Assembly: GCA_037445995.1 (NCBI GenBank)
Contig: JBBIJK010000011.1
Location: 1 to 49,381, forward strand
Length of the DNA stretch: 49,381 nt
Source: Actinomycetota bacterium
GTDB taxonomy: Bacteria > Actinomycetota > Coriobacteriia > Anaerosomatales > D1FN1-002
Direction of reading: 5' to 3'
A program made the position numbers. This document shows positions 1 through 6,000 of this stretch, one piece after another (position 1 is the stretch's first letter; each line of letters starts with the position of its first letter).

Positions 1-3000
1 CCCTGGCCGCGTTCGCGGCGGCGAGCGCCTGCGACACGACCGCGTCACCGGGGTCGGCGATGGCGGCGTCCAGCCCGGCCGCAGCCGCGGCCGACAGGAA
101 CGCGGCGTTGAGCTCGCGGCGCCTCGGCAACCCATGGCTGACGTTGCTTACGCCGAGGATCGTCGCAAGCCCCATCTTCTTGACGCCCGACGTGGCCTGG
201 AGGGTCACCCCGGGCGCGTCCGGATCGGTCGCGGCGGTCATCACCAGGGTGTCCACGACGAGGTCTTCGTCCCCAAGACCCGCATCGCGCGCCCTCGCGC
301 GCACCCTCTCCACTATTGCGAGACGTCCGTCCGCGTCATGCGGGATTCCATCGTCATCCAGCGCCAGCACGACGACCGCCGCGCCGTAGCGAGCGGCCAG
401 CGGCAACACCGCGCTCATGGAGTCCTCGCCGCCGTTGACAGAGTTGATGAGCGCCCGGCCCGGGTAGACACGGAGCGCGGCCTCCAGCGCCACGGTATCG
501 GTGGTGTCCAACACCAGCGGGAGGTCCGAGGTCCCCACGGCAGCCTCGACCGCCATGGGAAGGACGGTGGCCGCGTCGACGCCCGCAGCGCCCACGTTGA
601 CGTCCAGCGCGTCGGCGCCGGCGCTCTGCTGCTCGGACGCGTACTCCCTGACCACCGTCATGGAGCCTGCCCTCAGCGAATCCGCCAGGCCCTTCTTCCC
701 CGTGGGGTTGATCCGCTCGCCGACCAGCACGAGCCGGCGACCGCCGCCCAGCCGCAGCGACCGCCGCGGCCCCGCGATGACGACGCCGGTGGGTTTCTGG
801 CGTGCGAAGGGCACCTTCTCCTTCGCGAAGTCAGCGATCGCACCGGTGAAAGCCGGTGACGACCCGCAGCACGAGCCCACCAGGGACGCGCCGAACTCGA
901 CGGCCCCGGCGGCGCAGGCCCCCATCTCGTCCGGTGTGCCGGGGTAGACGGTGACGCCATCCACAAGGCGGGGGATGCCCGCGTTGGGCTGGATGATCAG
1001 CGGCAGCCCGGTGGAGCCCGCCATCCGCTCGAGCAGCGGCAACATCTGTTCGGGGCCAAGGCCGCAGTTCACTCCGATGGCCGCCGCCCCGCACGCCTCC
1101 AGTATCGGGGCGGCCTCCTCCGGCGCCGTGCCCGAGAGGTCCATGCGGCCGCTGGCCGAGAAGGTGACCGAGACGAACACCGGCAGGTCGGTCACGGAAC
1201 GCGCGGCCAGCAGCGCGCAACGCGCCTCGGCGATGTCGGTCATCGTCTCTATCAGGATCGCGTCGGGCCGCTCTGCGGCGAGCGCCTCGGCCTGCTCGGC
1301 GAACACATCGAACAGCTCGTCGTAGAGCGCGTCCCCGAGCGGCCGGAGAACCCTGCCGCTGGGCCCCACGTCCGCGAGCACGTGGGGGGACCCGCCTGCC
1401 CGGGCAAGCGCGACGCCGGCGCGGTTGAACCCGATCACCTGGTCCTCGAGGCCCCACTCGGCCAGCTTGAGGCGGTTGGCCCCGAAGGTGTTTGACGTGG
1501 CGCAATCCGCGCCGGCGAGCGCGTAGTTCCGGTGGATGTCGGCCAGCACGTCCGGGGCGGTGACGTTGAGCTGCTCAGGACACTGCTCGGCCGGGATCGC
1601 GGCGCGCTGCAGCATCGTGCCCATCGCGCCGTCCACGACCAGCACCTCATGGCCGAGCCTCATCAGTATGTCGGGCATCCGCTCACCGTCCCTCGCCCGT
1701 CGCAGTCTAGCGAAGCCTCAGCTCCCGCGTGTGACAGCCTCAGAACTGCAGGGTCACAGCCCTGCGAGGGCATGCTACGACACACGCCTCGCAGTAGACG
1801 CACCGGTCCTTGTCGAATGCCAGCTCCGAGATCTCGTCGAGGAAGAGCGCCCGGGGCCTGCATACCGCTGTGCACGCTCCGCAGTCCACGCACCTGCCCT
1901 CGTCGAGCCTGATGTCCGAGGCCGCCTCGGCCACGGTCAGACCCTCCCTCGCGAGGAACGCCAGACCCGCCTCGAAGTCGTCCTTGCGGCCCGTGAGCTC
2001 GAGCAGCATCCTGCCCTCCTGTCCGGGCTGGATCTGGGCGCGAAGGATGTTGGGGACCAGGGAGTGGTCCTTGACGAGGTGGTAGATGACCGGACGCGCG
2101 GACTGGCCCGGCGGAAAGGTGAGGTCGATCCTTCTTCGCGGCATCCTAGATCTCACCGGCCTCTCGCTCCTCGAGCGGGCGGAACGCCTGCTCCCCGGGG
2201 CCGGGCACCGGCTCCAGCGGTTGCGCGAGCGTGAACCTCGCCTCAGTCACCCAGCGCTTGAGCTCCTCGGCTATCCGCCTGGCCGCGGGCAGCGAGGAGA
2301 TGGGCCCTGTCGGCACCCTGACACCCTCGACTTCGATCTCCCCGGAGCGCAGCTGCGCGTAGGTGACCCGGCCGGGAGATGGTCGGCTCCGCCGCGCCAC
2401 CGCGTAGTCGAAGATCGTCGCCTCGAGGTCCTCGTCTGTCAGCGCGAGGGTGGCGGCTAGGTCCTCGTCCAGCACGGGTATCGCGACCCCGATCCCCACG
2501 AAAGCCGAGACCCCGTACTTGGAGAACGTGGCTGCCCTGAAGTACTCGGGCGAAGCCTTCCGCAAGTCGGCGATGACCGCCAGCGTCCCTGAGGGGGCCA
2601 CGGGCACGCCGCGCTCGTCGCGCACCTGGTTTGGGTTGTGCTGCGTACCCTGCCATGCCACGTAGCCGGGCGCTCCCGCGACGAAGCACCGCGTACCCAC
2701 GCCGATCGTCCGGTATGTCGGATCGTTCAGCAGCGGGGACAGCGCCCCGGCCGAGCAGTAAGTGGCGTTGCCGTATCTGGGCAGCAAGGTCCCCATGTAG
2801 GTGTACAGGGTCTCGTCGGAGGAGTTCACCGCGACCGCGTAGTTCTGGTAGGCGTTGCGAGGATTGAACAGGTAGGCCTGGTTCAGGTCCGCGAGCGTCA
2901 CCCAGGTGTCGATCTCAGTCCGCGGGTAGCAGTCGGTCCCGGGCCCCAGCGCCTTGAGCCTGACGGCCCGGCCCTCGAGCAGGTCCTCGAGCACGTGTGC

Positions 3001-6000
3001 CCCACCGTACTCGATGCCTCTGGTCCGCGACGGCTCGGTCGCGCCCAGATAGGTGTCGACGGCCGCCAGCCCGCCGGACGCCGGCACGTCGTTGAGCAGT
3101 ATCTCCTGCATCTTGATCGGCGGGTCCGCGTGACCGAAGTTGAGGAACGCGCCGCTCGAGCACATCGGGCCGAACGTGCCGGTCGTGACGACGTCCACCC
3201 TCCTGGCGGCCGCGCCGACGCCCTCGTCCGCGGCGATGAGCGCGAACTCCTCGGCGGTGACCACGACCGCCTCGCCCTTCGCGATGCGCGCGTTCACCTC
3301 TTCCCAGCTCTTCGCCACCCCGACCACCTCCCGCGAGACAAAGACCTCCCACCCTGTCGTCAGGGCGAGAGGCCTCTCGGTCAGCCTTCGCGGTACCACC
3401 CGACTTCGCCGCCCCCTTGCGGGTGACAGCCTCTTCTCGAGCACGGGACCGGTGGCGAGTTCCTCGGCGGTGGGCCTATCCGAGGGGTCCTATACTCATC
3501 AGCCTCAGGTAACGGGGGCGTCCGTCCGGCATTACTCCGCTGGCGCGTTTCCTCCGGAAGCCTCAGGGGCCATGTTCCGCGGCCTTCAGGCGCCGGTTCG
3601 CAGCAATCCCGGCTCTCTGGTGGCCCTACCCGGCCGCGTACTCATCCCCGTCGCAGGCGATGTCCTGTTCGATTGTCTGGCGAGGATACGCGGGGTGCTT
3701 CGGGCCTGTCAATTCGACGGGTTGCCTCCAAGTGGCTCCTCGCGGCCTCGAGTATCTCGTCGTGGTCGAACGCCAGCGGCGGCGGCTCATCCAGGGGCCA
3801 CCAGGCCGCCTCGTCAGCGTCATCACCGCCCGAAACCGCGACATCGGGGTCCTCCAGCACCGCGAGGTACGCGACGGCCACGGTCCACCCCCGAGGGTCA
3901 CGACCCTCACGGCCGAAGGCTCCCAGCGGCACGAGATCGCCCGCCCAACCCAGCCCGGTCTCCTCGGCCAGCTCTCGCCTGGCTGCGTCCTCGGGCGGCT
4001 CGAAGGGGTCGAGAAAGCCGCCGGGCAACGCCCAGTCGCCCAGGAACGGGGGACGCCCTCGCCGGACCAGCAGGACCTCGCGCCTGCCTTCCACCGTGCG
4101 AACGGCGACGACATCGCCTGTCACGCCGGGCCTTCGGAAGTCTTCCAGTGATGTCACGCCCGGATGGTAGCAGATGGCCGACGGACGTCAGCCAGCGGCG
4201 GACTCGCGCTGCGGCTCGCTGGCGAGCTTGAGCAGCAGACCCACATAGTCCCGATAATCCTCGCCCTGCTCTATCTGGACCAGCTCGAAGAAATCGCACT
4301 TCCGGCAGTGGACGTACTTCTCGTCAAAGGAGCCGCACACCGTGCCGTCGCACAGCGTGCCGGGCACCACCCAGCATGCGCGGCCGGCGCAAGTCCCGCC
4401 GTTGTCGCCGTGCAACCGGACCTCCGTCGCCGCGGCGCACGTCCCGAAAGTGCCAGCATGCTCACCGCCCGGCTGCCTGCCGCACTTCTTGTACTCCCAG
4501 CAGTTGATGTTCCCGGAGCCCGGCAAGCGCCCTCCCCTTCGAGTGTCGACCGCGACGTGGGGAAGCGCATCCCGTGCCAAACCACACAACTTCCCCACAT
4601 GCGCGGCCGAAAGCGCACACACCCCCAAGGGATGATGTCCCCACAAGGACGCGACAAGCATCCTCCCTTCCCCCCCTTCACGCAGGAGGGGCGCCCGCTA
4701 GGGCGCCCCTCCGACCCCACCCGCCGCGCCACCCGAGCCGCTAGGCGTCGATGATGCGCAGCGCCTCCTCGCGATAGGCGTCCGTCACGAACGGGATACC
4801 CGAGATGTCCGAGGCCTCGCGCGTGAGGGCCATCAGGTCCGAACGGCCGACCGTGTCCAGCCGCATGTTCCTCGAGCCGCTCATGAGTTGCTGCAGGCCG
4901 ACCCTGATACGGTCGGAGTAGGTGTAGATGCCGATGGCGCCCAGCGGGAACCGGTCCGCCTCGTCGCCGTACTTGGCCTTGAGGGTCTCATAGGTGACGA
5001 AGATCTCCTCCTTGGTCGTACCGAACTCCGAGACCGCCTTGGGGAGGTCGCCCTCCTTCATCCACCGCTCGATGCTGCTCCCCACGAAGCCCGGGATCAT
5101 CAGCGCGCGGCCCATGCATACGGCCTTGGTGTGCGGCGCTCCCATAGCGAGGACCTTGAAGACGTGGTCCTCGGCGGAGAAGCCGCCGGCGATGGCGATG
5201 TCTGGCACGAAGGCACCCTTCGCGCGCAGGCGCTCGACGAGCTCGTTGGTCATGCACTGGAGGTAGAACGTCGGGACGCCCCACTCCTCCATCATCCGCC
5301 AGGGGCTCATGCCGGTGCCGCCAGGCGCGCCGTCGATGGTGAGCAGGTCGATCTTGGCGTTGGAGGCCCACTTGATCGCCATGGCGAGCTCGCGCATCGG
5401 ATACGCGCCGGTCTTCAGGGTGACGCGCTTTGCGCCGAGGTCGCGAAGGCGCTGCACCTCGGCGTAGAAGCTGTCCTCGTCGATGAAGCCGAGGCGGCTG
5501 TGACGCTCGAACTGCTTGATGGCCGTGTCGCGAAACGCAGCCTGGATCGCCGGGTCGCTCGGGTCCGGCGTGACTAGGTAGCCGCGGGCCTGCAGTTCGA
5601 GCGCACGCTCGAGCGTGTCGACCTTGATCTCGCCGCCGATGCACTTGGCGCCCTGACCCCACTTGAGCTCCATCGTCTCGACGCCGAGTTCGCCGATGCA
5701 GTACTCCGCCACGCCAAGTCGGGTGTCTTCGACGTTCATCTGCACGAGGATGTCGCCGTAGCCCTCCTCGCGGTACTTGCGGTACGCCTCCACACGGCGC
5801 CGCATGTCCGGAGCGTCGACGACCTGCCCGTTGGGGCCGCGCTTGAGCTCGGGGTCGATGCCGCAGACGTTCTCGCCGCACACGATCGACACGCCGGAGA
5901 TGGCCGCGCCGACAGCGAAGCTTTCCCAATGCTTGCGAGCGATCTCGGTGGACCCGAGCGCGCCCGTGAAGATCGGCACGCGCATCTTGATCTTGTTGTC

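Follow-up and report, generated by a model that had tools for sequence, protein, structure and literature searches.

How is a predicted homocysteine-forming operon controlled in a bacterium of the order Anaerosomatales (Actinomycetota; Coriobacteriia), and what might an extra hairpin in its leader contribute to that control? The window analyzed here comprises 49,381 nucleotides (positions 1 to 49,381 of contig JBBIJK010000011.1, assembly GCA_037445995.1). The operon lies on its minus strand, with the following features in order of transcription.

3683..3712, minus strand: sigma-70-like promoter (TTGACA, 18 nt, TATCCT)
3358..3663, minus strand: T-box leader, full-length match to Rfam RF00230 (64.2 bits, E 9.9e-12)
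3571..3573, minus strand: specifier codon AUG (Met) in stem I, aligned to the RF00230 specifier position
3501..3559, minus strand: stem II, stem IIA with F-box, and stem IIB pseudoknot strand, from the RF00230 alignment (pseudoknot strand read from the sequence)
3439..3497, minus strand: insert, an extra hairpin upstream of stem III (folding z -2.4; stem covariation)
3468..3479, minus strand: apical loop of the insert, with a C-rich motif (3474-3469) complementary to the terminator 3' arm (3353-3348)
3451..3461, minus strand: the insert's 3' bulge, with CCACC at its end and complementarity to the T-box strand
3407..3429, minus strand: stem III, from the RF00230 alignment
3361..3402, minus strand: antiterminator with T-box bulge, UGGU at 3398-3395 matching a tRNA that ends in ACCA
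3336..3372, minus strand: terminator, hairpin 3372-3345 followed by an imperfect U-tract, 3344-3336
2146..3318, minus strand: HcyBio (DUF39, COG1900) sulfurtransferase subunit, 390 amino acids, no CBS domain (PF01837, 479 bits)
1740..2144, minus strand: NIL plus 4Fe-4S ferredoxin subunit (MA1822-like; NIL and Fer4 domains), adjoining the HcyBio gene
1..1678, minus strand: metH, N-terminal part, running off the contig end

The L-ASST enzyme pair (for L-aspartate-semialdehyde sulfurtransferase) converts aspartate semialdehyde, with a sulfur donor, to homocysteine. Prediction of such an enzyme here is supported by the PF01837 domain with both cysteines, the adjoining NIL-ferredoxin gene, and a PRK04334-family gene on contig C21 of the same genome (292 bits against a cut-off of 271), a family we take to be the sulfur-trafficking gene COG2122. 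The protein is 50-54% identical to the methanogen homologues compared, and membership of the marker-16 (CoM synthase) subfamily was excluded (TIGR03287, 117 bits against a cut-off of 364). No solved structure matching HcyBio by sequence was found. Cys53 and Cys130 are kept in all 50 homologues compared; they were equated with the conserved L-ASST residues Cys54 and Cys131 by position in the numbering given in the portion of PMC12068725 consulted. An earlier note on this DNA stated that the HcyBio gene had been called too far upstream; translation likely starts at GTG 3318, behind a Shine-Dalgarno sequence at 3331-3325, and not at 3444. The metH gene probably continues on contig C21, which carries the B12 domains followed by metV-like and metF-like genes; this join is inferred, and no sequence overlap was found.

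Examination of the leader confirmed the full-length T-box with AUG specifier, UGGU bulge, and terminator that the earlier note had placed ahead of the operon. The RF00230 match spans the whole model (positions 1-219), its score lying below the Rfam cut-off of 93 bits, and the leader carries an insertion of about 65 nt that the model does not include. The promoter-like site is the only one found, with 0.0 expected in shuffled sequences, and relatives show similar sites upstream. Both CAU tRNAs found in the assembly end in ACCA, complementary to the UGGU bulge; no initiator-type tRNA was recognized in this assembly. The terminator region (3330-3380) folds at -31.7 kcal/mol (z -3.7). A simple terminator scan did not call it, and the U-tract is weak and imperfect here; among 71 T-box leaders the terminator hairpin is about -30 kcal/mol, with a run of at least four U in 54 and at least three in 67. 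A translational class II T-box, the ileS type of Actinobacteria, was also considered and rejected, as stem I is full-length and the Shine-Dalgarno sequence lies outside the hairpin. With a whole-model match, a specifier that suits the pathway, UGGN/NCCA complementarity, and a terminator exclusive with the antiterminator, the leader is a Met-specific class I T-box that very probably gives tRNA-Met control of HcyBio, NIL/ferredoxin, and metH.

HcyBio genes are present in 89 of 146 genomes of the order (66 of the 98 of good quality), and a T-box with Met specifier forms part of 71 of the 81 related leaders examined, the other ten having no T-box; T-box and specifier are also absent in one further genome (G018). 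The additional T-boxes reported earlier for this genome were likewise found, before ilvD (CUG), trpB2 and trpE (both UGG), and pheS (UUC), the last matching only the 3' part of the Rfam model at 32 bits. Across the class Coriobacteriia, T-boxes were detected in 135 of 141 genomes, 32 above the Rfam cut-off.

The wider claims of the earlier note fared less well, and the novelty it claimed mostly fails. Regulation had been offered as new evidence that the enzyme makes homocysteine in bacteria, but genetics came first: the portions consulted of PMC4045070 and PMC5764234 describe mutant, complementation, and rescue data from Desulfovibrio alaskensis and D. vulgaris by which DUF39 makes homocysteine. 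The label "archaeal-type" is misleading for the same reason, and the enzyme claim adds little to the existing genetics. Nor is the pairing of T-box and DUF39 peculiar to these bacteria, as a Met T-box lies upstream of the HcyBio gene in records of three other lineages, Atribacterota included, and a SAM-I riboswitch in four Bacillota records. A protein tree made by a quick method gave no supported grouping of those proteins from Coriobacteriia, Atribacterota, and L056 whose genes follow a T-box, and so does not demonstrate a shared ancestry for them. Finally, the claim that the DUF39 route is the methionine pathway under tRNA-Met control is not supported. The genome also encodes metY-metX behind a leader peptide with Met codons, kept in all 30 loci examined; metA (PF04204) was not found in this genome. 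This order places each of its two homocysteine routes behind a predicted tRNA-Met sensor of a different kind, a T-box for one and a leader peptide for the other.

What appears to be new, and is not mentioned in the earlier note, is the conserved extra hairpin, whose loop varies in step with the terminator. In 39 sequences, 95.5% of the insert stem cells are paired and 9 of 11 pairs show two-sided changes; none of 500 shuffles scored as high, and slid registers gave 14-43% pairing. A hammerhead-like reading of the bases preceding the insert was rejected, the core order being wrong by eye and Rfam giving no match. Five of the 71 T-boxes have no insert, and in about four others the loop does not match, which makes the insert dispensable.

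We compared the loop with the 3' arm of the terminator. Over 36 distinct loop/arm combinations, 251 of 324 cells were Watson-Crick against 233.7 +/- 3.4 after shuffling, under an anchoring rule set after the data had been seen and with 8 of 83 insert-bearing sequences excluded (six in which no anchor was found, two dropped for want of a C-rich loop). When each of 18 families contributed a single genome (200 draws), the covariation had a median p of 0.001 and a worst of 0.015. Watson-Crick pairing was 93% in register and 37-52% when slid. The central pair is G-C in 31 combinations, A-U in 3, and G-U in 2, with no mismatch, and all three loop changes there coincide with arm changes; at the next pair but one, the loop has C in 36 of 36. 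On a tree built from leader parts outside the test, three loop and four arm changes fit four joint changes, on branches making up 7.7% of tree length. The signal comes from a small number of events, of which three are at the central pair and one or two at another.

These data bear on the view that this is an ordinary Met T-box whose insert is a structural spacer, the complementarity arising from G/C-rich runs or a decayed copy of the terminator 5' arm, or else acting only post-transcriptionally, on RNA stability. Linker insertions are common in T-boxes, to go by the portions consulted of PMC7913692 and PMC7583486; in this genome the T-boxes for Trp and Phe carry their own; C-runs pair with G-runs at about 50% even when slid; and a dispensable insert would suit a spacer. 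The loop, however, covaries with the 3' arm and not with the 5' arm, in separate families: the 5' arm has G throughout at the central pair position and U in 35 cases at the next but one. We therefore regard the spacer view as unlikely and the loop-arm pairing, on this comparative evidence, as probably real.

Pairing of anticodon with specifier and of NCCA with UGGN locks a T-box antiterminator. Accumulation of uncharged tRNA-Met would thus switch the operon on. With tRNA bound, the terminator 5' arm would be kept in the antiterminator and the 3' arm would emerge free; six to eight of its bases would then pair with the insert loop in a pseudoknot, usually ending 2-4 nt before the U-tract, and with its 3' arm so bound the terminator could not be completed. 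When the tRNA is charged, the longer contiguous terminator would win. Capture of the 3' arm by the loop to stabilize read-through, in an operon under Met T-box control, is the reading toward which we lean. The free loop-arm duplex averages -15.6 kcal/mol (-11.4 in this leader), values that overstate the pseudoknot energy. Loop-bearing leaders do not have stronger terminators; the terminator-minus-antiterminator gap is about equal with the loop (-16.9 kcal/mol) and without it (-16.0), so the notion that the loop is needed to offset a stronger terminator is unsupported.

The same covariation would also fit a real pairing of opposite effect, in which the duplex beside the U-tract forms a second terminator-like helix that favors termination or pausing and damps leaky read-through. 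An oligonucleotide that pairs immediately upstream of a U-tract can reportedly release the transcript (Yarnell and Roberts 1999), and the CCACC bulge might, in addition, tie up the T-box strand. Pairing and covariation nevertheless fade nearest the U-tract (arm positions 8 and beyond), where a terminating duplex should need them, and the native terminator is already at about -30 kcal/mol. We consider damping improbable, and an effect of the pairing in favor of read-through moderately probable.

The CCACC bulge occurs in 51 of 60 loop-bearing leaders and in 2 of 11 others, while its partner in the T-box strand is invariant. Their pairing, which would be a pseudoknot, exceeded a probability of 0.1 in 9 of 50 nested ensembles. 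The Shine-Dalgarno sequence is a less likely partner, since CCACC stays where the Shine-Dalgarno context varies. Conservation of the insert exceeds what pairing needs: a U-G pair is kept in 39 of 39 sequences, a bulged base is also conserved, and CCACC is unpaired. The insert might accordingly act as a sensor for a further input, be it SAM, homocysteine, or a protein, with loop-arm pairing gated by it in a two-input switch, and the SAM-I riboswitches before homologous genes elsewhere would suit this. Against it, no Rfam aptamer matched within the insert, and variants exist with the insert heavily altered or lost. Moreover, strong matches to an insert model are confined to this T-box; those outside are all weak (E 4e-4 or worse), the two best falling in coding sequence, and a survey of 141 genomes of the class and 141 of the phylum, with five of the phylum genomes not all inspected, turned up no free-standing copy. 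We think such gating very unlikely. Only tentatively do we suggest that the insert is a second expression-platform module: in the ON state its loop would grip the 3' arm, and in the OFF state CCACC would vie with tRNA for the T-box strand, perhaps gated by a second ligand. If true, a T-box linker insertion would acquire a mechanism, and in GC-rich leaders the switch would not have to be settled by tRNA binding alone.

The predicted enzyme shares with the L-ASST systems of Methanosarcina acetivorans (MA1821/MA1822) and Desulfovibrio (Dde_3007, DvMF_1464/DvMF_0262/DvMF_0044) a PF01837 subunit with both cysteines, a NIL-ferredoxin next to it, and a PRK04334-family member encoded in the genome. 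Like the Desulfovibrio proteins it lacks a CBS domain; it differs in having a T-box at the head of the operon and metH within it. The leader has in common with class I Met T-boxes of RF00230 a stem I with AG bulge and specifier loop, stem II, stems IIA/B, stem III with purine flanks, the UGGN bulge, and a competing terminator. It differs from them in its occurrence in Coriobacteriia, its DUF39 operon, and its hairpin with a terminator-covarying loop. Reviews describe the T-boxes of Actinobacteria as mainly of the translational ileS type, and in the open-access literature we found nothing on T-boxes of Coriobacteriia, on COG1900 with a riboswitch, or on an insert pairing with a T-box terminator. 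Stem Sa of the staphylococcal glyS T-box is likewise a lineage-specific insertion and alters read-through, but it is located within the antiterminator/terminator domain and has an effect on tRNA selectivity, whereas the present insert is upstream of stem III (PMC9177973). The MET-T-box of Staphylococcus aureus (Wencker et al. 2021, PMC7913692) controls different enzymes and has three stems, L I-III, of unknown function, where the present leader has one hairpin with a candidate partner. The functions of T-box insertions are stated to be unknown in the portions consulted of PMC7583486 and PMC7913692; the insert described here has a named candidate partner, with compensatory variants occurring in nature.

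The leader of the homocysteine biosynthesis (HcyBio) operon in the window is a T-box in which AUG occupies the specifier position of the Rfam model, and the T-box bulge reads UGGU.

3712-3683, minus strand: promoter-like site upstream of the T-box
3358-3663, minus strand: T-box, full-length Rfam match (64.2 bits, E 1e-11; below the cut-off of 93)
3573-3571, minus strand: specifier AUG

The terminator hairpin 3' of the T-box (-31.7 kcal/mol, z -3.7) has an imperfect U-tract and was not called by a simple terminator scan. The genes that follow encode, in order, HcyBio/DUF39, a NIL-ferredoxin, and MetH. 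HcyBio likely starts at GTG 3318, and its Cys53 and Cys130 are conserved in 50/50 homologues; the conserved cysteines of the enzyme are reported as Cys54 and Cys131 (PMC12068725). The rest of MetH is probably encoded on contig C21, where metV-like and metF-like genes come after it; no sequence overlap was found between metH and C21. The nearest relatives' records mostly bear the names Coriobacteriia or Actinomycetes. The T-box is real and belongs to an established class. The arrangement described in the earlier note, a Met T-box with terminator heading HcyBio, NIL-ferredoxin, and metH, was confirmed. A NUDIX gene (3642-4157, minus) lies upstream of the T-box, apparently likewise in many relatives; in the source genome its reading frame crosses the promoter into the 5' end of the T-box. 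Two further features were recorded.

47594-47753, minus strand: glmS ribozyme (103.5 bits)
4188-4502, minus strand: small protein with two CW domains (NF045718), encoded downstream of a gene resembling glutamate synthase

The earlier note had also presented this regulation as new evidence that the archaeal-type route makes homocysteine in bacteria. This claim fails because Desulfovibrio mutants had already shown that DUF39 makes homocysteine. A DUF39 gene was shown to be required for this in D. alaskensis by mutant, complementation, and homocysteine rescue (Kuehl et al., PMC4045070), and DUF39, NIL/ferredoxin, and COG2122 were likewise needed in D. vulgaris (Price et al., PMC5764234); the bacterial pathway is already known.

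The source genome also encodes metY-metX and a pair resembling cysteine synthase and cystathionine lyase, and it has a SAM-I riboswitch ahead of a gene identified as metK-like by its N-terminus. Within the order Anaerosomatales, metY is present in 79/146 genomes, and all 30 of the best metY loci examined (L331-L360) have a short frame upstream in which Met accounts for 4-5 of 6 codons.

G000:C39 (source genome), just upstream of metY (13655-14956), minus strand, and loci L331-L360: frame of 28-46 codons with a run of Met codons, preceded by a strong Shine-Dalgarno

The frame is followed by GC hairpins that lack a U-tract, and 16 metY leaders scanned gave no Rfam match. The frame is a candidate for methionine leader-peptide control. 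Contrary to the earlier note, then, DUF39 is not the only route predicted to read tRNA-Met.

Four further T-boxes were found in the source genome, before ilvD, trpB2, trpE, and pheS as previously noted, with specifier codons matching the pathway. Those ahead of trpB2 and trpE, both Trp T-boxes (G000:C10:14905-15173; C22:14035-14303), look identical by eye over ~330 nt, which suggests that one was recently duplicated or converted. At the linker position where the Met leader has the inserted hairpin described below, they have a different one, present in relatives too. The ilvD T-box (G000:C5:79903-80183; relatives L296, L301, L317, L322) has specifier CUG or CUC. It is without a clear U-tract in the source genome, and the hairpin 3' of it appears able to extend back and pair with the T-box sequence itself. 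Class-wide, T-boxes occur in 135/141 Coriobacteriia genomes (32 above the Rfam cut-off), and most of the 50 inspected were of the Trp, Leu, or Phe type and had terminators. Actinobacterial T-boxes have been described as mainly of the translational ileS type (TBDB, 10.1101/2020.06.17.157016; review, PMC7583486); those of Coriobacteriia may already be in existing tables (Vitreschak 2008, TBDB).

HcyBio is present in 89/146 genomes of the order and, in a class sample of 201, only in this order (0/108 in other families). Upstream DNA was examined for 82 of the 89; AUG and the T-box sequence are found in 71/81 leaders, and a further genome, G018, is without them. G140 (L133) has lost stem IIA/B and the inserted hairpin described below while keeping specifier and terminator, G137 (L140) retains mere T-box fragments, and nine genomes (G074-G077, G019, G027, G121, G125, G126) have no T-box before HcyBio. 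Pattern scanning of metagenomes yielded 120 loci, of which 18 were this Met T-box, some of them duplicates of genomes. Outside the order, 30 of the remaining bacterial HcyBio loci were scanned, 20 of them at the Rfam cut-off plus a profile and motif check. This revealed, before the gene, Met T-boxes in L114 (Atribacterota), L111, and L056 (about 2580-2960), all without the insert, and SAM-I riboswitches in four Bacillota records (L051, L104, L106, L108).

The Rfam model leaves ~65 nt of the window leader unmodelled 3' of the F-box, and an extra hairpin lies upstream of stem III.

3439-3497, minus strand: inserted hairpin, apical loop 3468-3479
3372-3345, minus strand: terminator, with 3'-arm bases 3353-3348 complementary to loop bases 3474-3469

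Across 39 sequences, the lower stems of the insert covary, with two-sided changes in 9/11 pairs, and 95.5% of cells are paired, a value reached by 0/500 shuffles (slid controls, 14-43%). An insert model matched strongly at this T-box only, once per genome; its two best matches elsewhere lie within coding sequence, and a phylum sample, whose tally includes two unpublished genomes used for no other result, gave weak matches only.

A C-rich motif at the end of the apical loop is complementary to the terminator 3' arm. We scored 75 of 83 insert-bearing sequences (6 lacked an anchor and 2 were dropped for no C-rich loop). With an anchoring rule fixed after the data had been seen, 251/324 cells in 36 distinct combinations were Watson-Crick, versus 233.7 +/- 3.4 with partners shuffled. 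Sampling 18 families by a single genome each gave a median p of 0.001 (worst, 0.015), and the six core positions were 93% Watson-Crick in register versus 37-52% slid. Loop G becomes A at the central pair exactly where the 3' arm changes C to U (this window, G041, and G143; three families), and the terminator 5' arm, bound by the antiterminator, stays G. G132/G133 show more two-sided changes, as do G014, G016, G021, G039, and G143 at a neighbouring pair. When a tree was made from parts of the locus outside the tested pairing, all three central loop changes mapped to branches where the arm changes; such branches make up 7.7% of tree length, giving a rough chance of coincidence of 5e-4. As judged from covariation, it is the 3' arm that the loop follows rather than the 5' arm, and this speaks against the loop being a decayed duplicate of the 5' arm.

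In T-boxes, uncharged tRNA locks the antiterminator. The terminator 3' arm, once freed, would then be captured by the insert loop, in a pairing that usually ends 2-4 nt before the U-tract, and completion of the terminator would be blocked. We infer this capture from few covariation events. The terminators of these leaders are strong, averaging -29.7 versus -12.8 kcal/mol for antiterminators; TBDB gives means of -19.5 and -7.4 (10.1101/2020.06.17.157016). The terminator-antiterminator gap is about equal in leaders without and with the loop (-16.0 vs -16.9), which counts against capture; a rival reading is that loop and 3' arm form a duplex favouring termination. That the insert is dispensable among relatives also counts against capture, and the insert could instead be a spacer. 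A CCACC bulge on the 3' side of the insert, in 51/60 loop-bearing leaders versus 2/11 others, is complementary to the T-box strand and could pair with it like a tRNA end; sensing of a second ligand through the insert is a further rival to 3'-arm capture.

No insert that covaries with a partner in the terminator was found in the literature searched. Closest to it is the S. aureus met leader (PMC7913692), whose extra stems share the linker position and are reported to have no known function.
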